Shown: positions 6,401-53,359, counted from the first letter of the stretch. The stretch: DNA of 64,000 nucleotides from Allosphingosinicella sp. (GCF_036402135.1 NZ_DASWTN010000002.1:22279-86278), one strand, 5' to 3'. The notes: a model not told the origin generated them from the letters alone. Translations and numbers: made by a program.

Positions 6401-7099
6401 ATGCCCGACCGAAGCTACAAGCAATTCTGCCCCGTCGCGATGGCTGCGGAAATTTTGTGTACACGCTGGACTGTAGTCCTGCTCCGCGAGCTGGTTGCGG
6501 GCTCGAGCCGCTTTAACGAATTGAGGCGTGGCATGCCGCGCATGTCTCCAGCCCTGCTTTCGCAGCGCCTGAAGGAGCTGGAAGCCGCCGGGATCGTCCG
6601 CCGCACCCCGTCCGCGACGGAGCCTGGAGTGTCCGAATATGGCCTCACCGATGCTGGCAAGGAGCTTGAGCCGCTAATCGAGGCGTTCGGCCGCTGGGGC
6701 CAGCGCTGGGTGACGACCGAGCTTTCGCTGGAGCATCTCGAAGCCTCGCTCCTGATGTGGGATATGCGCCGGAACCTCATCACCGATCCAATGCCGCGGC
6801 ATCGGAACGTCATCCACTTCCGCTATCCCGAGCAGGCAGCGGTCGACCGTTCCTGGTGGCTGATCGTCGAGCCCGATATGCCGGTCGATCTCTGCTCGGT
6901 CGATCCCGGTTTCGATGTCGATCTCTACGTCTCCACCGGCCTCCGGACGATGACGGCGATCTGGATGGGCCTCGACACCGTCCGCGCCGCGCTCGCCAGC
7001 CAGCGGATGCACCTTACGGGCGACGAGACGCTGGCAAAGGACATGCAGGCGTGGCTCGGTCTCAGCCCCTTTGCCGCCGTCCAGAAGCTGGTGGCCTAA
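6401..7099 (+). CDS. HxlR-family winged-helix regulator with extra C-terminal domain
   Basis: FCPVAMAAEILCTRWTVVLLRELVAGSSRFNELRR..SPALLSQRLKELEAAGIV is a classic HxlR signature. SD GGAGGA lies upstream of the ATG. Confidence 0.85.
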   Translation: MPDRSYKQFCPVAMAAEILCTRWTVVLLRELVAGSSRFNELRRGMPRMSPALLSQRLKELEAAGIVRRTPSATEPGVSEYGLTDAGKELEPLIEAFGRWGQRWVTTELSLEHLEASLLMWDMRRNLITDPMPRHRNVIHFRYPEQAAVDRSWWLIVEPDMPVDLCSVDPGFDVDLYVSTGLRTMTAIWMGLDTVRAALASQRMHLTGDETLAKDMQAWLGLSPFAAVQKLVA

Positions 7100-8274
7100 G
7101 CCTTGCGGCTCAGCGTCCGCATCGCTTCGTCCAGGCCTTCCAGCGTCAGCGGGTACATGCGGTCCTGCATCAGCCGGCGGATGAGCAGGATGGACTGGCT
7201 GTAACCCCAATACTCATCGCGCATCGGGTTCAGCCACACGGCTGAGGGATAAGTATTGGTGAGGCGCTGCATCCAGACCGCGCCCGCTTCGTCGTTGAAA
7301 TGCTCGACCGAGCCGCCGGGGTGGGTGATCTCATAGGGACTCATCGATGCGTCGCCGACGAAGATCAGCTTGTAATCGTGCCCATATTTGTGGAGCACGT
7401 CCCAAGTCGGCGTCCGTTCGGTGAACCGGCGGCGATTGTCCTTCCACACGCCTTCGTAGACGCAATTGTGGAAGTAGAAGAATTCCATGTTCTTGAATTC
7501 GGACGTGGCGGCGGAGAACAGCTCCTCGCAGACGCGGATATGCGGGTCCATTGAGCCGCCAACGTCGAGGAAGAGGAGAAGCTTCACGGCATTATGCCGC
7601 TCGGGTCGCATCTGGATGTCGAGCCAGCCTTTCCGCGCGGTGCCGTTGATCGTGCCGTCTATGTCGAGCTCATCCGCCGCGCCTTCGCGGGCAAAGCGGC
7701 GGAGGCGCCGGAGCGCGACCTTGATGTTGCGAGTGCCGAGCTCCTTCGAGCTGTCGAGGTTACGGAATTCGCGCTTGTCCCAGACTTTGATTGCGCTTCG
7801 CTGGCCGCCTTCGCCGCCGATACGTACGCCTTCCGGATTGTAGCCTGAATTGCCGAAGGGGGAGGTGCCGCCGGTGCCGATCCACTTATTGCCGCCCTGG
7901 TGCCGCTCCTTCTGCTCCTCGAGCCGCTTCTTCAGCGTCTCCATTATCTCTTCCCAGGAACCCAGCGATTTGATCTCGGCCATCTGCTCCGGCGTGAGGT
8001 AGAGTTCGGCCACCTTCTTCAGCCACTCCTCTGGTATTGGAACGGCTTCGGTTCCGTAGTCGATCTCGATCCCTTTGAAGACCTTCCCGAACACCTGATC
8101 GAAGCGGTCGAGGAGCGCCTCGTCCTTCACGAAGGTGGCGCGGGCGAGATAGTAGAACTCCTCCGGGCTGGCCGCGATGATGTCCGCGTCTAGCGCTTGC
8201 AGCAACGTGAGATGCTCCTTCAGCGAGGCCGGGATGCCCGCCGCGCGAAGCTCGTCGACAAAGGAGAAGAACAT
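7096..8274 (-). CDS. VWA domain protein, CoxE-like (MoxR partner type)
   Basis: 392 aa. C-terminal VWA/MIDAS-like LFLDVGGSMD. N-terminus MFFSFVDELRAAGIP is typical of CoxE-like proteins. Confidence 0.8.
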   Translation of the reverse strand: MFFSFVDELRAAGIPASLKEHLTLLQALDADIIAASPEEFYYLARATFVKDEALLDRFDQVFGKVFKGIEIDYGTEAVPIPEEWLKKVAELYLTPEQMAEIKSLGSWEEIMETLKKRLEEQKERHQGGNKWIGTGGTSPFGNSGYNPEGVRIGGEGGQRSAIKVWDKREFRNLDSSKELGTRNIKVALRRLRRFAREGAADELDIDGTINGTARKGWLDIQMRPERHNAVKLLLFLDVGGSMDPHIRVCEELFSAATSEFKNMEFFYFHNCVYEGVWKDNRRRFTERTPTWDVLHKYGHDYKLIFVGDASMSPYEITHPGGSVEHFNDEAGAVWMQRLTNTYPSAVWLNPMRDEYWGYSQSILLIRRLMQDRMYPLTLEGLDEAMRTLSRKA

Positions 8275-8340
8275 GGGCCGCTCTTACGCCGGCTTGCAGC
8301 GCCTTGCCAGCGGCTCGCTGGTTAACGGCCTTTCAACCAA

Positions 8341-8386: not shown

Positions 8387-9793
8387 GTGGCAAGCTCAGC
8401 GATTGAACAGACGGATGGCAACGCGATCAACACGGTGGCACGCAATTGCGGCTCGCTGGCGATCGAATGCAGCGACGTTTCCGGCTACGTCGCCGGCGTT
8501 TCCGACCGCATTTCCTCCAACTTGAAGACGCTCGACGCGCTCGAGGAGATCACCAGTCGCCTTCTGGCCGATCAGGCGCGGGTCGCCGATTCCACCGACG
8601 AAGCCCGGGTGCTTGCCGAACAGGCACGCGAGAAGCTGGGGCAGGGCCGCTCCGCCATCGAAGACACGATAAAGATCTTCAGCGGCCTGACCGATCTCGT
8701 CGTCCAGCTTGGCGACCGGATGGCCGGGTTCGCCGAGGCCATGGGTCAGGTCCAGAACGTCTCCTCGACGATCGAGACGATTGCTAACAAGACGAACATG
8801 CTGGCGCTCAACGCTACGATCGAAGCTGCGCGAGCCGGTGAGGCGGGACGGAGCTTCGCCGTCGTCGCGGCCGAGGTGAAGAAGCTCGCGCACGACACGC
8901 GCTCGGCCACCAGCCAGATCGCGTCCACTGTCAATTCGCTTACCCGTGAGGCGGAGGCAGTGACTTCCGAAATCAAGGCGGGTGTCGACAAGAGCCGTAT
9001 CGCCCAGTCGAGCTTCAGCGCGATCAACGACACCGTTCGCGACGTCGCCGACATCGTGGCAATGGTGGACCGTCAGACAGACGGCATCGCCCAGTCCACC
9101 GCACTCATTCAGCAGAGCGTCGACAGCGTGAAGGGCGGCCTCTCCAATTTCGCGTCAGACGCCCGGGCCAATGGCGGCGAGCTTCTGAAGACGCAGGAGC
9201 GGCTCGCGAAGCTCGAGCTGATGTCCAACGACATGCTGGACAAGCTTGCCAGCTGCGGCGTCCGCATCGATGACACGACCTTTATTGAGCGCGCCCAGCA
9301 GTTCAATCGCGAACTCGTCCGTCTCGTCGAAAAGGCCATCGAACGGGGCCAGATCAGCGAGGAGGCGGTGTTCGACACACATTACGTGCCGATGCCGGGT
9401 ACCAACCCTACCCAATATTCGACGCGCTTCTGCGACTTTGCCGACGAACATGTCCGGCCCGTGCTCGATCGGCTGATGACGAGTGACGGCCGCCACATCG
9501 GCTGTGTCATGAGCGACATCAACGGCTATCTGCCGACGCACATAACTGAACGCTCGCAGCCGCAGGGGCCGGATCCCAAGTGGAATGCCGAACATTGCCG
9601 CAACCGTCGCAACTTCATCGACGACGCGACGCGCCGCGCCATTGACAGCGAGAATGACGCAATGCTGGTAACCTACCGCATGAATCTCGGCGAGGGCCGC
9701 TACCTGCCAGTCAAGAACGTGTTCGTGCCGATGTACATTGCCGGTCGCCGCTGGGGCAATTTCGAGCTCGCCTACCGCGACGAGGCGCGCTGA
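8387..9793 (+). CDS. soluble methyl-accepting chemotaxis protein; signalling domain N-terminal, uncharacterised C-terminal domain
   Basis: MCP hairpin-tip motif [32 protein letters not shown]. No hydrophobic TM stretch seen. GTG start. Confidence 0.85.
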
Positions 9794-32465: not shown

Positions 32466-32679
32466 TCGGCGCGTGTTTAACGCGGCTGAAATGTTACCAA
32501 TCCACAACAAAAGCCTGTGGATAATTTATTTGCCATTTGAGTGACTTGTGAAGGCCTGAGCGCATGCGTATAGGCCCGTCTGGGGCAGGATGCCGATTCT
32601 CCGAAAAGAAGGGAACGGCTTCCCACAAGGGTTTGGCAGACCGGCTTGGGGTCCGGGATGTGAAGCGAGTGGAGGGGTT

Positions 32680-33132
32680 ATGGCTACGGCGTTAAGCGAA
32701 GTTTACCCGCAACCTACCGGTCCGATATTGCCGACAGGCTATCGGCCCAGTGCCAACGAAGAATTCATGAACCCGCTGCATCTGCTTTATTTCAAGCAGA
32801 AGCTGCTCGACTGGAAGGAAGCGATCGTTCGCGAATCCCGCGAGACGATGAGCTCCCTCAAAAGCGGGCCGATCCGCGAGGCGGACCTTACCGACCGGGC
32901 ATCGAGCGAGACCGACTGGTCGATCGAACTCCGCACACGGGACAGGCAACGTAAGCTCATTTCGAAGATCGACGCCGCGCTCCGCCGCATCGAGGAAGGC
33001 GAATATGGCTTTTGCGAAGTGACGGGCGAGCCAATTTCGCTCGCGCGCCTCGAGGCAAGGCCGATCGCGACCATGACCGTCGAGGCGCAGGAGCGCCACG
33101 AAAAGAACGAGCGCGTTTCGCGCGACGACTGA
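32680..33132 (+). CDS. dksA: RNA polymerase-binding transcription factor DksA (single-Cys variant)
   Basis: ATG at 32680 after GGAGGGG. Coiled-coil DxxDxA-type tip region (ADLTDRAS). C-terminal FCEVTGEPISLARLEARP retains only one Cys. Confidence 0.88.
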   Translation: MATALSEVYPQPTGPILPTGYRPSANEEFMNPLHLLYFKQKLLDWKEAIVRESRETMSSLKSGPIREADLTDRASSETDWSIELRTRDRQRKLISKIDAALRRIEEGEYGFCEVTGEPISLARLEARPIATMTVEAQERHEKNERVSRDD

Positions 33133-48169: not shown

Positions 48170-49120
48170 CTAGGCGATTTGCTGCGCGGCTCCAAGCCGC
48201 ATCAGCGCGGCCTCCATGGCCGTGTCGCTGTCCAGTGCCTCCGTGAAGCGCGGCCAGTCGGCAGGCGGTTGGCGGCTGAACCACGTATATTGGCGTTTGG
48301 CATATTGGCGCGTGGCGGTTTGGCCGGCCGCAAGCGCCTCTTCTGGCGTCAATTCGCCTCGCAGCAGCGCTGCAAGCTGCGGCACGCCGATCGCGCGCAT
48401 GACGGGCAGGGCGGGATCGAGGCGGCGCTCCAGAAGGTGCCGCACCTCCTCCAGTCCCTCCGGGGACATCATTTCCGCGAAGCGCGCGTCGCAGCGGGCG
48501 TAGAGCCACTCGCGCGGCGACAGGAGGATGAGCGGCTGAAGCGCCACTTCCGCCGCAATCCCGCCGGTCCGCTCCTGCTGCCATTCGGTGATGCTCCGCC
48601 CGGTCGAGCGGACCACCTCCAGCGCGCGCGCCACGCGGGTCGTGTCGCTGGGGCGGAGCCGGTGCGCCGCATGCGGATCTTCGCGGGCAAGCGTGGCGAA
48701 AGCTTTCTCGACGGGTAGGGCGCGCACTTCCGCGCGGATAACCTCGCCGATCGGCGGCACCGGCGCGATTCCGTCGAGCAGAGTGCGGATATAAAGGCCC
48801 GTGCCGCCGACGAGGATCGGAAGCTGTCCAGCTTCGTGGGCATCGGCGATGGCACGACGCGCATCGGCCGCCCAGTCGGCTGCCGAAAAGGCCAGGGCGC
48901 CGTCGCGATATCCGTAGAGGCGGTGCGGCGCCCGAGCTTCCTCTTCCTGCCCCGGCCGCGCGGAGAGGATGCGAAGGTCCCTGTACACTTGCGCGCTGTC
49001 GGCGTTGATGATGACGCCATTCTGTCTTTCCGCCAGCCGGAGCGCGAGCGCCGACTTGCCGCTCGCGGTCGCGCCCGCGATAAGCGCGAGCCGCGGCAAC
49101 GAAGAGGAATCCATGTTCAT
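48170..49120 (-). CDS. miaA: tRNA dimethylallyltransferase MiaA
   Basis: P-loop [11 protein letters not shown], then [12 protein letters not shown]. The track ORF to 49393 is an upstream extension. Confidence 0.9.
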
Positions 49121-49994
49121 TGCGACCCTGATAGCAAAGGAGCGGCTGACGAGCGGCGATATTTCTGTCGCAGAGGGCGCGCTTCGTTCAGCATGGGTCG
49201 AACCGCAGGGGCGGAGCTGGATCGAGGAAGATATCGCCTGCGATCTCCTGTTCCCGACCCTGCCAAAGGCGGCGCGCGAGGCGCTGGAGGGGCTGATCCC
49301 CGGCTGTGACGTCATCGTCCAGGCGGAGGCGGGGCGGCGAAAGAAGCTTCTCGTCGCCGATATGGATTCGACCATGATCACCGTCGAGTGCATCGACGAG
49401 CTGGCCGATTATGCGGGGCTTAAGGAGGAGGTGAGCCGGGTCACCGACCGTGCCATGCGCGGCGAACTGGATTTCGAGGCGGCGCTGACCGAACGCGTGG
49501 CGCTTCTGAAGGATCTCGACGAATCTGTCATCGGCCGCTGCCTCGAGGAGCGGGTGGGGATAACGCCCGGCGCCATTCCGCTCGTCCGGACGATGAAGCG
49601 GGAGGGTGCACGTTCAGTGCTCGTCTCGGGCGGCTTCACCGCCTTTGCGAACGAGGTTGCCGAGACGATCGGCTTCGACCGCGCCATTTCGAACGAGCTT
49701 CAGGTCGAGAATGGCAGAATCACGGGCGAGGTGGGGCGGCCGATCGTCGGCGCCTATGCCAAGAGGGACGCCTTGTTCGATGCGGCGGCACTGGCCGGCG
49801 TCACCGTCGAGGAGGCGCTGGTGGTGGGCGACGGCGCTAACGACATTCCGATGATCGAAGCAGCGGGCCTCGGCGTCGCCTATCATGCCAAGCCCGCCAC
49901 GGCCGCAGCGGCAGCGGCGCGCATCGAGCATAACGACCTCGGCGCGCTCCTCTACGCGCAGGGCTATGCCAGGCGGGAGTGGGAGGAGGCCTAA
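49113..49994 (+). CDS. serB: phosphoserine phosphatase SerB
   Basis: HAD motif I DMDSTMI and motif [11 protein letters not shown]. Start at ATG 49113. Confidence 0.88.
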
Positions 49995-50308
49995 GCCTCC
50001 GGGCGGCTCATATCGGCGGTGATCGCCGCCAGCGCGAAGGCCACCGACCTTTCCGAACAATCAAGTGATAGGGCGATCCCGTCTGGCGCATGTGCGCGGA
50101 CGGTGCCGGAGATGGTGCCTGCCTCGGGATGGCGAAGCTCGACGTAAGACCCTAGCTGCGGCCGTGCATTGGTCTCAAGGAATGCCTCGGCACCCGAAAT
50201 CGTGCGGAGCGCGGCGGGCACGGGAAGCTCGGCCACAAGGATGCACATGCGGCGCTGCCGCCAGGGCGATGCCATCGCCGCATCCGTGAACTTCCATTGC
50301 AGACCCAT
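49991..50308 (-). CDS. PilZ-like small protein (tentative)
   Basis: RQRR...LRTISGAEAFLET loosely fits the RxxxR ... D/NxSxxG pattern of PilZ. ATG at 50308 preceded by AAGGGGG. Confidence 0.45.
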   Translation of the reverse strand: MGLQWKFTDAAMASPWRQRRMCILVAELPVPAALRTISGAEAFLETNARPQLGSYVELRHPEAGTISGTVRAHAPDGIALSLDCSERSVAFALAAITADMSRPEA

Positions 50309-50401
50309 GTGCACCCCCTTGCACGCGAACAAGGTGGCGCAAGTAAACGGAACAGGGCAAAAATTTCGTTAAGCAGCAGAAACGAGCGACGCCGCCACGT
50401 T

Positions 50402-50422
50402 CATGACGTCAATGGCGTCATG
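50402..50422 (+). promoter_or_regulatory. inverted repeat CATGACG-N7-CGTCATG in the ParA-like operon leader
   Basis: Perfect 7-bp arms. AAGGTGGCG direct repeats at 50332 and 50425 flank it. Confidence 0.35.
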
Positions 50423-50500
50423 CAAAGGTGGCGTTAACCTGATTTTAGCAGCCGCCAGTGCATCTCCCTGCCCAAGAATATGGAGCCTTAAGGGGAAAAC

Positions 50501-51229
50501 ATGCGCGTTCTTGCTCTTTCGTCGCAAAAAGGTGGTTCCGGCAAGACCACTCTGTCCGGCCACCTGGCCGTCCAGGCGCAGCTTGCGGGCGCTGGGCCCG
50601 TCTGCCTTATCGACATCGATCCGCAGGGGTCGCTCGCCGACTGGTGGAACGAGCGCGAGGACGACATGCCTGCCTTCGCGCAGACGACGGTGGCCCGTCT
50701 CAGCGCCGACCTTGAAGTGCTCCGCCAGCAGGGCTTCCGCCTTGCCGTCATCGATACGCCGCCTGCCATCACCATGGCGATCCAGAGCGTGATCCAGGTG
50801 GCCGAGCTGGTCGTCATCCCGACCCGCCCGAGCCCGCACGACCTTCGCGCCGTCGGCGCCACGGTCGACCTCTGCGAACGCGCGGGCAAGCCGCTCATCT
50901 TCGTCGTCAATGCCGCGACGCCGAAGGCCAAGATCACCTCGGAAGCTGCCGTCGCCCTTTCCCAGCACGGCACCGTCGCTCCCGTCACCATCCATCACCG
51001 CACCGATTTCGCCGCCTCGATGATCGACGGCCGCACGGTCATGGAAGTGGATCCGGGCGGCAAGTCCGCGAACGAAGTGCGCGAGCTTTGGGACTATATT
51101 TCGGACCGGCTCGAAAAGACCTTCCGCCGCAGCGTCTTCACCGCGCCCGGCGCGCCTGCGGCCGCCGCGCACAGCATGGCTGCACCCCGCCCGATCGGTG
51201 GCTTCGGCCGCCGCGTCGTCGGCCAGTAA
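50501..51229 (+). CDS. ParA/MinD-family ATPase (small, type Ib-like, no N-terminal HTH)
   Basis: Deviant Walker A SQKGGSGKTT, then IDIDPQGS, then Walker B-like LAVIDTPP. Confidence 0.88.
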   Translation: MRVLALSSQKGGSGKTTLSGHLAVQAQLAGAGPVCLIDIDPQGSLADWWNEREDDMPAFAQTTVARLSADLEVLRQQGFRLAVIDTPPAITMAIQSVIQVAELVVIPTRPSPHDLRAVGATVDLCERAGKPLIFVVNAATPKAKITSEAAVALSQHGTVAPVTIHHRTDFAASMIDGRTVMEVDPGGKSANEVRELWDYISDRLEKTFRRSVFTAPGAPAAAAHSMAAPRPIGGFGRRVVGQ

Positions 51230-51250
51230 GGCGAGGGAGGTGTGCGTACG

Positions 51251-51991
51251 ATGACCGAACCCAAACCTTTCGCGTCCCTGTCTTCGGGCCTGCTTGCCCG
51301 GAAAGGCATGGCGAAGCCGGCGATGCGCCCGCAAAGCTACGGCGGCGGATCGCTCGACGATCTCGGCTGGAACGACATGGGCCATGCCCGTCCCGTTCCG
51401 CAAATGCCCTCTCCCTACGAGGCGCCGCACGACGAGCATGTGCCGAGCCCGATCTCCGCGCTGACGCCGATGAACGGCGACTACCGCGTCGAGGATGAAG
51501 AGGATTTCGAAACGCCGCAGGTGGTCGAGCAGCAGCGCGCCATAGAGGCGACCTTCGGCACCGAACCTGAAAGCCCGCTTTCCGTGAAGGTGAAGAAGCC
51601 GGCCCTTCCGGAGCCGGAGCCCGAAGTCGAGGCGGCGGCCGAGGAAGAACTGGTGCTGGACCCGCCGATCGAAGCCGAAGCCGAAGTCGAGGCGGCGCCT
51701 GAACCGCTTCAGCAGGAAGAACAGAGTTTCGAGCCCATCAGGCTCGAGGCGCCGGCGCCGGTCGCGAAGCTTCCGAAGAAGCCCCGCGGCATCGTGTCGA
51801 AGGCCAAGGAAAAGGCCGCCTTCACGCTTCGTCTGGACGGCAACCGTCACCTGAAGCTCCGGCTCGCCTGCGCGGTGAGCGGCCGTTCGGCCCAGCAGCT
51901 GGTAACGGAAGCTTTAGATGAGCTGCTGCAGTCTCTGCCCGAAGTCGAGGCCCTTGCCGAGCAATTGCCCGCCAAGAAGGCCCGGAATTAA
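51251..51991 (+). CDS. ribbon-helix-helix protein with long acidic/proline-rich N-terminal region (ParG-like adaptor candidate)
   Basis: C-terminal KAAFTLRLDGNRHLKLRLACAVSGRSAQQLVTEALDELL is a textbook RHH. ATG at 51251 lies 10 nt after GGAGG. Alternative GTG at 51242. Confidence 0.65.
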   Translation: MTEPKPFASLSSGLLARKGMAKPAMRPQSYGGGSLDDLGWNDMGHARPVPQMPSPYEAPHDEHVPSPISALTPMNGDYRVEDEEDFETPQVVEQQRAIEATFGTEPESPLSVKVKKPALPEPEPEVEAAAEEELVLDPPIEAEAEVEAAPEPLQQEEQSFEPIRLEAPAPVAKLPKKPRGIVSKAKEKAAFTLRLDGNRHLKLRLACAVSGRSAQQLVTEALDELLQSLPEVEALAEQLPAKKARN

Positions 51992-52009
51992 ACGTCTGGA
52001 GTTAAGACG

Positions 52010-53302
52010 ATGAGGAAGAGTTCGCTGTTCAAGATGGCCGCTTCGCCGCTGGTGCTCGGCATCACGATGGTCGGCTGCACCACCGCCCAGACGACGGCGT
52101 TCCGCCCTGCGGCCTCAACGCCGAAAGAGGCGAGCGCGGCCGAACGGGCGGCGAAGTTCGCCGATCAGGCGATGCTTGCAGCGCAAAAGGGCGATCTCGC
52201 CCAGGCGCTTACCCATGCCGAACAGGCGGTCGAGGTGTCTCCGCGCGATGTCGGCTACCGGATGATCCTCGGCGACCTCTACCTCAAGAACGGCCGCTTC
52301 CTCTCGGCCAAGACCACCTTCAACGACGTGCTGACGCTCCATGAGGAGAATACGCGCGCCCGCTTCAACCTCGCGCTGTCGCAGATCGCGCTTGGCGAGC
52401 GGCATTCGGCGATGGTCCAGCTCGACCGGCTGTTGGAGACGCAATCGCCGGCCGATCTCGGCCTTGCCTATGCGCTGGCCGGTGCGCCTGAGCGCGCCAT
52501 CGAAATGCTTGAGCAGGCCGCGCGTACGCCGGAGGCCAATGCCCGCGTACGCCAGAACCTAGCGCTTGCCTATGCGATCGCTGGCGACTGGAAGCGCGCG
52601 CGCAACACTGCCTCGCAGGATCTTTCGCCTGCCGACCTTCCCGCCCGCATGGAGGAATGGGCGGCGTTCGTGACGCCAAAGGCGAATTACGATCAGGTCG
52701 CGAGCCTCCTCGGCGTCACGCCGGCGGACGATCAGGGTCAGCCGACCCGCCTCGCGCTTGCGCCAGAGCCGGCTCAGCCGGTGCAGATGGCTGCAGTGGA
52801 GCAGCCCGCGGCTCCTGTTATCGAACCGCAGCCTGTCGCCGAAGCGCCGGTCGTGGAGCCGGCCGCCGCGCCGGAGCCTGCCAGGGTCGAGTATGCTTCG
52901 GCGGCCAAGTCGCTGATCGCGCCGCAGCCGGCCGTGCAGAAGGCCGCGCTTCCGGCTTCCGCTCCGGTAGCCGCGTTCAAGCCGGCCGCCGCGAAGCAGA
53001 GCCTTGAGCCAAAGAAGACCGGCACCAGCCGCTACGTCGTCCAGCTCGGCGCCTACAAGTCGCCCGCGCTCGCCGCGGCCGCCTGGACCTCGGTCGCCAA
53101 GCGCTACGGCCTCAATGCCTATTCGCCGATGCGGGCGACGGTGCAGCTGCCCGGCAAGGGCACGTTCCACCGCCTGTCGGCCTCGGGCTTTGCAAGCCAG
53201 GCCGAAGCGCTTCGCGCCTGCCAGAATGTGAAGGCCAAGGGCGGCGCCTGCTTCGTCCGCAATGCCGCCGGCGACTCGCCGATCCGGCTCGCTTCGCGCT
53301 AA
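52010..53302 (+). CDS. TPR-repeat lipoprotein with C-terminal SPOR domain
   Basis: Lipobox LGITMVGC, TPR-like helices, Pro/Ala linker. SPOR-like YVVQLGAYKSPALAAAAW...FHRLSASGFASQAEALRAC. Confidence 0.8.
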   Translation: MRKSSLFKMAASPLVLGITMVGCTTAQTTAFRPAASTPKEASAAERAAKFADQAMLAAQKGDLAQALTHAEQAVEVSPRDVGYRMILGDLYLKNGRFLSAKTTFNDVLTLHEENTRARFNLALSQIALGERHSAMVQLDRLLETQSPADLGLAYALAGAPERAIEMLEQAARTPEANARVRQNLALAYAIAGDWKRARNTASQDLSPADLPARMEEWAAFVTPKANYDQVASLLGVTPADDQGQPTRLALAPEPAQPVQMAAVEQPAAPVIEPQPVAEAPVVEPAAAPEPARVEYASAAKSLIAPQPAVQKAALPASAPVAAFKPAAAKQSLEPKKTGTSRYVVQLGAYKSPALAAAAWTSVAKRYGLNAYSPMRATVQLPGKGTFHRLSASGFASQAEALRACQNVKAKGGACFVRNAAGDSPIRLASR

Positions 53303-53323
53303 GCTATAGTTTCGCGGGGAACG

Positions 53324-53359
53324 GGCGGTGTCGGAGCGATCCGGTGCCGCCTTTTCTTT
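53324..53359 (+). terminator. rho-independent terminator closing the ParA-like operon
   Basis: 12-bp stem GGCGGTGTCGGA/TCCGGTGCCGCC (three G-U pairs), GCGA loop, then TTTTCTTT. Confidence 0.5.

Follow-up and report, generated by a model that had tools for sequence, protein, structure and literature searches.

A chromosomal ParA/ParG-like operon with a SPOR lipoprotein gene in Sphingomonadales and its possible link to cell division

We analysed a stretch of 64,000 nucleotides (nt) from Allosphingosinicella sp. (GCF_036402135.1, NZ_DASWTN010000002.1:22279-86278), hereafter the window, and found a three-gene operon whose first two genes appear to derive from a plasmid partition cassette. The three open reading frames (ORFs) lie on the + strand at 50501..51229, 51251..51991 and 52010..53302, with gaps of 21 nt and 18 nt, in agreement with the preliminary description of this DNA, which had reported three tightly spaced, co-directional genes. 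They encode a small ParA ATPase, an adaptor protein with a probable ribbon-helix-helix (RHH) domain and a lipoprotein with TPR repeats and a SPOR domain. The reading that we prefer, to which we give about an even chance, is that a type Ib ParA/ParG-like cassette became a permanent core chromosomal operon in the Sphingomonadales and was then elaborated, and that its output serves cell division. The homology, the architecture, the linkage, the conservation and the cis element on which this reading builds were all observed directly.

Gene 1 encodes a 242-aa protein with the type Ib layout, as had been claimed for it. The deviant Walker A motif KGGSGKT, which has the KGGxxGK[ST] form, is located at residue 10, the Walker A' motif at D38/D40 and the Walker B motif at D85, and the catalytic motifs are all intact. 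The protein lacks an N-terminal helix-turn-helix, and its alignment with ParF begins at residue 1. Its top matches in the PDB are ParF/TP228 ParA, and a tblastn search revealed relatives on 1699 plasmids, the best of which are 57-65% identical across residues 1-206. The closest curated family is also plasmid-type, namely ParA_partition of NCBIfam (NF041546, "ParA family partition ATPase"), which gene 1 matches across the full model with 166.8 bits, under the curated cutoff of 180, and hence without formal membership. These nearest relatives contradict the earlier statement that the cluster does not look like plasmid partition.

We also considered the cargo-specific families of this superfamily and rejected them. 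The scores against BcsQ, MinD, VirC1, RepA and the CpaE homologue family were 19-54 bits, and those for BcsQ (54 bits, cutoff 158), MinD (23, cutoff 213), the CpaE (TadZ)-like family (19, cutoff 154) and VirC1 (28, cutoff 313) are far under the curated cutoffs. The view that the ATPase stands outside families of assigned cargo such as BcsQ and TadZ is therefore upheld. MipZ (PF09140) was rejected as well, as only aa 3-53 match positions 2-52 of the 262-position profile, which correspond to the P-loop.

Beyond the part that is common to plasmid ParAs, gene 1 carries a C-terminal extension of ~35 residues (aa 206-242; 51116..51226, +), which was defined by the alignment of orthologues and by charge calculation. 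This tail has a net charge of +6 with no acidic residue and contains the conserved motifs NFRR(T/S)VF and GGFGRRV, neither of which is present in the plasmid ParAs. Over 64 orthologous loci, gene 1 and its window counterpart share a median identity of 87.6%; the same comparison gave 81% for GatA, 76% for GatC, 67% for MutL, 66% for RuvX, 65% for PyrB, 59% for MiaA, 58% for SerB and 57% for IlvC. Gene 1 is the most constrained protein of the region.

Gene 2 (51251..51991, +) encodes a 246-aa adaptor, and we placed its start at the ATG at 51251 and not at the GTG at 51242 because its homologues open with M-x-E-P-K-P-F-A-S-L. Alignments of 39 close and 51 diverse homologues, together with an AlphaFold2 (AF2) model, divide the protein into three parts: its N-terminal peptide is basic, the linker that follows is acidic, disordered and interspersed with short invariant motifs, and the C-terminus forms a probable RHH. 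The invariant modules are, from the N-terminus, FASLSSGLLARKGxAKPAMR(P)Q, DLGWNDMG, EHVPSxIxALTP, PxVVEQQRAIE and KAAFTLRLDxxRHLKLRLACAVxxRSAQQLVTEALDxxL. In the linker (aa 45-180), the net charge is −20 and Pro, Glu and Ala make up 49% of the residues, consistent with the Pro/Glu/Ala-rich sequence behind a basic N-terminus noted before; the stretches between the motifs vary in length. The AF2 model predicts disorder except for a short helix at aa 90-102 and two helices at aa 197-238, where the predicted local distance difference test score is ~90. As modelled, this helix pair has the look expected of an RHH monomer without its partner strand.

The probable RHH covers aa 186-232 (51806..51946, +) and consists of the strand AAFTLRL, the helix RHLKLRLACAV, a G-R-S turn and the helix AQQLVTEALDELL. 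Both Pfam matches are under the cutoff (RHH_10, E 0.012; Antitox_RHH, E 0.016), and the sole credible PDB match is the RHH protein SvtR, with a profile E of 0.02. When aligned with hhalign to the partner protein of a Comamonas plasmid, the domain gave 86% probability with an E of 5e-6. Residues F191, T192, L193, R194, R199 and H200 are invariant; of these, T192 and R194 are expected to face the DNA, and the G-x-S turn is likewise invariant. Foldseek found nothing significant for the gene-2 model in the PDB, the match to the PutA RHH included, because the model is mostly disordered. The domain had been called a textbook RHH; the SvtR and hhalign matches and the AF2 helices bear out an RHH as probable, whereas Pfam E values of ~0.01 do not justify the adjective.

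The kinship of gene 2 with plasmid partition proteins became evident from its two ends. In the plasmids, the next gene downstream of parA encodes partners of 114 aa and 84 aa (L008:3656-4000 and L009:3651-3905), which open with the gene-2 N-terminal motif (SLSAGLIAKKGQAVPA and DLSGLVATKGAAAPVM) and end in an RHH. The gene-2 N-terminus is 61% identical to the Xanthomonas plasmid partner across 18 columns of the hhalign alignment, and the same partner is above the Pfam RHH_10 cutoff. The common N-terminal motif and RHH therefore identify gene 2, as far as sequence comparison can tell, as a ParG-like centromere-binding protein enlarged by a motif-bearing disordered linker. A tblastn search with gene 2 against the 72,556 plasmids of PLSDB gave no match. 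With both terminal modules of plasmid ParG-like partners present in gene 2, the earlier denial of a plasmid partition origin fails for the adaptor as it does for the ATPase, and the pair appears to be a domesticated plasmid-type cassette, not a relative of MipZ, PomZ, PpfA or McdA.

Two of the gene-2 modules deserve separate mention. The N-terminal peptide (aa 1-30; 51251..51340, +), with the invariant core FASLSSGLLARKGxAKPAMR, is presumed to be a ParA-contacting, ATPase-stimulating tail by analogy with the N-terminal tail of ParG, for which ATPase stimulation is described (Barilla 2007, as cited in PMC9178275). The first linker motif, DLGWNDMG (aa 37-44; 51359..51382, +), has the invariant columns D37, L38, G39, W40 and D42 and no counterpart in the plasmid partners, and it is a candidate docking motif for a further partner.

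The three genes were followed through 7 genome loci found with a single gene-2 protein scan, 80 metagenome loci and 6 loci obtained by exact look-up. The ParA gene lies directly upstream of gene 2 in 74 of the 74 loci with enough flank, the TPR/SPOR gene directly downstream in all 64 of 64, and the trio is unbroken in every related locus examined (~90). The interpretation of the three genes as one system had presupposed such synteny among relatives, and it holds. The gaps within the trio are 10-40 nt at all loci compared, which fits an operon. Even where the flanks are rearranged (L010, L093 and the contig of P0351), the trio is intact. The gene-2 family comprises 1698 clusters of 50% identity at E<=1e-3, 540 of which match at E<=1e-30. 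The taxonomic range was read from the best 120-150 matches of each search; among the matches listed, all named gene-2 relatives are from Sphingomonadaceae or Erythrobacteraceae and annotated "hypothetical", and all named gene-1 relatives are from Sphingomonadales except one record labelled Enterovirga, a Rhizobiales genus. That record (P0124, "Enterovirga sp.") is 91% identical to gene 1. Another one, L006, bears the title "MAG: Bordetella parapertussis" and has a ParA of 83% identity, but its gene order follows that of Sphingomonas glacialis; mislabelling or contamination seems likely for both records.

The trio is surrounded by housekeeping genes, with mutL, ilvC, miaA and serB upstream and pyrB, ruvX, a DUF3089 gene and gatCAB downstream. 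No mobile-element genes were found among the genes flanking the trio in the window, as the preliminary description had also stated. Taken together, the sequence comparisons support a chromosomal, vertically inherited operon.

Gene 3 (52010..53302, +) encodes a 430-aa TPR-SPOR lipoprotein, which was recognised by the Pfam SPOR family, several TPR families and the N-termini of its orthologues. Its signal peptide ends in the lipobox MRKSSLFKMAASPLVLGITMVG-C23, read directly from the sequence, and is followed by TPR repeats (aa 45-205), a Pro/Ala linker and the SPOR domain (aa 339-417), which scores 50.1 bits in Pfam against a cutoff of 21. The lipobox, TPR repeats and SPOR domain that had been ascribed to gene 3 are thus all present. 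Because a lipobox or signal peptide is found both in gene 3 and in its orthologues, whose lipobox reads LAGC or LTNC, the protein is predicted to be periplasmic.

A second SPOR gene, which encodes a Sel1+SPOR protein with a signal peptide and a predicted periplasmic location, is transcribed divergently upstream of parA in 41 of the 41 loci whose upstream flank measures 1700 nt or more. It is missing at three loci, which are the window, L001 and L093. In the nearest relatives of the window, the order is serB, a 113-aa ORF (orf113), the Sel1-SPOR gene and parA, whereas in the window orf113 adjoins parA; therefore, the Sel1-SPOR gene was lost at this position. We found no homologue of it elsewhere in the 64 kb window. 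In L004, L016, L017, L019, L022-L024 and L026, which were compared with window positions 50333-50500, the Sel1+SPOR gene is located between orf113 and parA.

Genes 1 and 2 lack an export signal, and both SPOR proteins are without a transmembrane or cytoplasmic segment. With the ATPase and its adaptor in the cytoplasm and the SPOR proteins in the periplasm, it is topologically implausible that the ATPase carries the gene 3 product directly, and the link between the two must be indirect, through co-expression or a transmembrane partner. The link to a SPOR lipoprotein that was suggested earlier is accordingly upheld in one respect, since the linkage (64/64) is far stronger than could then be known, and abandoned in the other, since the topology speaks against direct positioning of the lipoprotein.

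The leader of the operon contains a conserved promoter element, TTAACCTGATTTTAG (TTAA-N7-TTAG; 50434..50448, +). In 56 of the 57 orthologous leaders, TTAAC-N6-TTAG precedes the ATG by 64-74 nt (by 89 nt at one locus), and some lineages carry a second copy further upstream. The pattern TTAA-N7-TTA[AG] is nearly confined to this position, with 63 of its 65 matches in 593 kb of related DNA falling in the parA leader. Read on the minus strand, the box is CTAA-N7-TTAAC and agrees with the consensus of CtrA, TTAA-N7-TTAAC, at 8 of 9 positions. When the CtrA pattern was searched in the window with up to one mismatch, we found it at 4 places, corresponding to 8 strand-hits where 0.8 are expected, and none of 100 shuffled sequences reached 8. 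Since boxes of this class recur in the window, one of them in front of a chemoreceptor-like gene, the comparison favours a site of a global regulator, most likely CtrA, rather than a gene-2-specific operator. GTTAAC was considered as a palindromic RHH site and rejected, as its leading G varies (CTTAAC in L010) and the conserved unit is TTAAC-N6-TTAG. Boxes of this kind were not seen in front of parA in the plasmids (L008 and L009).

The preliminary description had instead proposed as an operator or centromere-like site a palindrome, CATGACGTCAaTGGCGTCATG (50402..50422), whose 10-nt arms are 90% complementary, and two copies of AAGGTGGCG. These sequences exist, but they are absent from all orthologous leaders, and we do not retain the proposal. 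The palindrome sits in an insertion specific to the window, and this insertion may be the scar of the Sel1-SPOR deletion.

Other boxes of the CtrA type were also observed. One with a single mismatch, TTAACGGCCTTTCAAC, is located at window positions 8321-8337, ~50-65 nt upstream of a chemoreceptor-like (methyl-accepting chemotaxis protein-like) gene (8387..9793), a spacing comparable to that of the parA-leader box; the intergenic region is common to a divergent vWA-like gene (7096..8274). An AT-rich intergenic stretch at 25100-25150 contains several CtrA-like half-sites (TTAACCCTAATTATTTAGGTTAACAAGTTAGTAACCAT) between a rimO-like gene (23495..24850, −) and a gene for a 775-aa membrane protein (25147..27474, −), which, judging its translation by eye, has a probable C-terminal EAL-type domain. 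At 32691-32707, the box TTAAGCGAAGTTTACC lies at or just before the 5' end of a DksA-like ORF (32590..33132), whose true start probably lies further downstream than the one called mechanically. In the Erythrobacteraceae locus L010, a perfect CtrA half-site octamer, GTTAACCAT, is found at 12112, ~50 nt upstream of a gene for a CHAP-domain protein of the peptidoglycan hydrolase type, which lies a few kb from the trio.

We infer DNA binding, ATPase stimulation, CtrA control and a division link, and these can be assembled into a mechanism. Its biochemical core, an ATP-dependent ParA dimer on the nucleoid with a DNA-binding partner that fires its ATPase, can be predicted with good confidence from the homology. 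Gene 1 would bind ATP, dimerise and coat the nucleoid, probably helped by its extra basic tail, while gene 2 would dimerise through its RHH and bind DNA. On contact with gene 1, the invariant N-terminal peptide of gene 2 would set off ATP hydrolysis, and the resulting ParA gradient would act as a diffusion ratchet that moves or centres gene-2 complexes on the nucleoid. The linker motifs (DLGWNDMG, EHVPSxIxALTP and the VVEQQRAIE helix) and the gene-1 tail would dock a further partner. The linker motifs, the basic ParA tail and the extreme conservation of ParA argue for a new host function with such added partners. The output would be timed with cell division and serve it, for example by marking the division site or by coupling a chromosome region to septation. 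We suggest this because the TPR-SPOR gene, never separated from the pair, appears to be co-transcribed throughout, the Sel1-SPOR gene usually faces the operon and the promoter box is of the CtrA type, three features that point to division or to envelope events late in the cell cycle. A bolder version, which we offer tentatively and consider rather unlikely as it stands, is that the plasmid-derived machine became an order-specific, nucleoid-reading system that places or licenses the septum, where the linker would recruit a divisome component and the SPOR proteins would act in the periplasm.

Several observations weigh against the preferred reading. The cytoplasmic location of genes 1 and 2 and the periplasmic location of the SPOR proteins leave no evident physical link between them, and the linkage may reflect co-regulation only. 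The RHH assignment of gene 2 is under the Pfam threshold. We did not find a conserved centromere-like repeat array beside the operon, which has one CtrA-like box and at some loci two. A 2015 study by Francez-Charlot reportedly found that CtrA in Sphingomonas melonis controls chiefly motility and biofilm, and a CtrA box alone is therefore no proof of a division role. The synteny argument is weakened because a single order supplied all the loci and gene order is also kept over the wider region there; this is partly offset because L010, L093 and the P0351 contig are rearranged and the trio is still whole there. Literature searches found no paper or experiment on this module.

Among the other explanations, we regard a second chromosome-segregation system as a minority possibility. 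In such a system, gene 2 would bind one or more chromosomal centromere sites and gene 1 would segregate the region, as in plasmid ParFG or archaeal SegAB, while the SPOR genes would be co-timed neighbours. This is the default role of the closest relatives; it agrees with the invariance of the expected DNA-contacting residues and with the separation of cytoplasm and periplasm, and archaea do possess chromosomal ParA + RHH pairs in SegAB. However, the leaders offer no conserved iteron or centromere array, only a box or box pair that matches the consensus of a global regulator, and the linker motifs and ParA tail, both foreign to plasmid systems, as well as the SPOR gene that is never separated from the pair (64/64), are left unexplained. 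A regulatory pair, which seems improbable to us, would have gene 2 as an RHH repressor of the divergent SPOR promoters and gene 1 as its co-repressor, as ParF enhances repression by ParG, with TTAAC-N6-TTAG as the gene-2 operator. The box lies within the common promoter region, its two 4-bp half-sites have the 11-bp spacing that Arc and other RHH tetramers use as well, and its occurrences in the 593 kb are almost restricted to the parA leader. Type Ib centromere-binding proteins are moreover known to autoregulate their own operons (PMC9178275). The recurrence of the motif class at three other places in the window, in an excess that fits a global regulator, argues against this explanation, and a plain repressor needs neither an ATPase surface conserved at 88% nor extra linker motifs.

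The two remaining explanations fare worse. The proposal of the preliminary description, in which the ATPase and adaptor carry the TPR-SPOR lipoprotein as cargo, has the strict operon linkage in its favour, but a nucleoid-bound ATPase cannot reach a periplasmic lipoprotein unless there is a transmembrane bridge, and we think it very improbable. Least credible of all is an inactive leftover of plasmid integration, or an incompatibility determinant like ParI, the orphan ParA borne on a genomic island. Plasmid ParAs are indeed the closest sequence relatives, and ParI provides a precedent (PMC9178275), but order-wide conservation, a housekeeping context with no mobile-element genes nearby and a ParA that is the best conserved protein in the region with all catalytic motifs intact already contradict it. 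We prefer the reading of a captured and elaborated partition cassette with a proposed output in division.

The operon is closed by an intrinsic terminator (53323..53359, +), which adjoins the stop codon of the convergent pyrB gene and is common to both transcription units. In its hairpin, 13 pairs form the stem (53323..53352), TTTCTTT comes next and the folding energy is −31.1 kcal/mol (z −3.4), so the closing hairpin and T tract described earlier were found again. On the other side, orf113 (49991..50332, −) is transcribed divergently and possibly encodes a divergent PilZ domain, judging from Pfam matches of its orthologues. PilZ ranks first among the families in 6 of 10 orthologues, where its scores of 15-21 bits stay under the cutoff of 22.5, and Pfam PilZ did not match the window protein. 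The PilZ-like label given earlier to this divergent gene is thus only partly borne out. Of the 41 loci whose upstream flank is 1700 nt or longer, only 8 have the gene, and it is not a core part of the locus.

A few features of the window lie apart from the operon. As called mechanically, the miaA (48170..49393, −) and serB (48969..49994, +) ORFs share ~425 nt (window 48170-49994); since orthologous MiaA proteins have 300-340 aa, the true miaA start probably differs from the mechanical one and the overlap is probably an ORF-calling artefact. At 12001-16000, the G+C content is 0.588, compared with 0.641 for the whole window, and this stretch could be horizontally acquired. GC skew within the window gave no ori/ter signal, and the PADLOC defence families gave no match.

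What ParA/MinD ATPases are known to position ranges from plasmids and chromosomes to carboxysomes, chemoreceptor arrays and division sites; the search for new cargos is an active field. The present case concerns a plasmid partition cassette that appears to have been captured by a whole bacterial order, with an ATPase that is more tightly conserved than tRNA-amidotransferase subunits; it seems to have gained candidate docking motifs and is locked in an operon with a protein predicted to bind septal peptidoglycan. If the proposed origin and role hold, it would show clearly how a segregation machine of mobile elements can be turned to the biology of the host cell. If the module governs division or the coordination of chromosome and septum, it would help explain the cell-cycle organisation of an ecologically and biotechnologically important order, and a ParA/RHH machine that places the septum would add to Min, MipZ and PomXYZ a new counterpart of independent origin. 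The predictions made for this compact module can be tested directly in tractable strains of Sphingomonas, Novosphingobium or Zymomonas.

Among known systems, the type Ib cassettes represented by ParF-ParG of TP228 are the closest to the pair. The likeness extends to a small ParA without a helix-turn-helix, the deviant Walker A motif and the identity of 57-65% to plasmid ParAs, and to a partner gene directly downstream whose product has a flexible N-terminal tail with the common motif and, in gene 2 probably, a C-terminal RHH. In contrast to these cassettes, the present pair is chromosomal, vertically inherited and order-wide, and is not carried by a plasmid or mobile replicon. Its gene 2 has 246 aa instead of the 84-114 aa of type Ib partners, owing to the acidic disordered linker with invariant motifs, and its ParA has the extra basic tail and a score under the NCBIfam equivalog cutoff (166.8 < 180). 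The present operon also has no adjoining iteron centromere and has the SPOR lipoprotein gene fused into it. Gene 3 shares a bona fide C-terminal SPOR domain with the division proteins FtsN, DedD, DamX and RlpA and weakly matches the C-terminus of Caulobacter-type FtsN, but, unlike the bitopic FtsN, it is a lipoprotein whose N-terminal part carries TPR repeats, and it scores 42 bits against the NCBIfam FtsN cutoff of 300.

The more distant comparisons concern function. McdA-McdB likewise pairs a ParA-type ATPase with a largely disordered, charged adaptor; however, gene 1 resembles McdA weakly and at the P-loop only (E 1e-4), there are no carboxysome genes and the present adaptor keeps a probable DNA-binding RHH. 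The archaeal SegA-SegB system and MatP, the RHH-containing Ter organiser of E. coli, resemble the module by description, in that a chromosomal, RHH-containing protein ties DNA to the segregation or division machinery, while phylogenetic range and architecture differ. PomXYZ of Myxococcus and MipZ of Caulobacter, in which a ParA-family ATPase that works on the nucleoid or through ParB places the division site, are analogues in concept alone, with no specific sequence kinship to a system whose partner is a probable RHH protein; PomX activates its ATPase through an N-terminal peptide. By analogy, the module may work like ParF-ParG and play a role like that of PomXYZ or MipZ.

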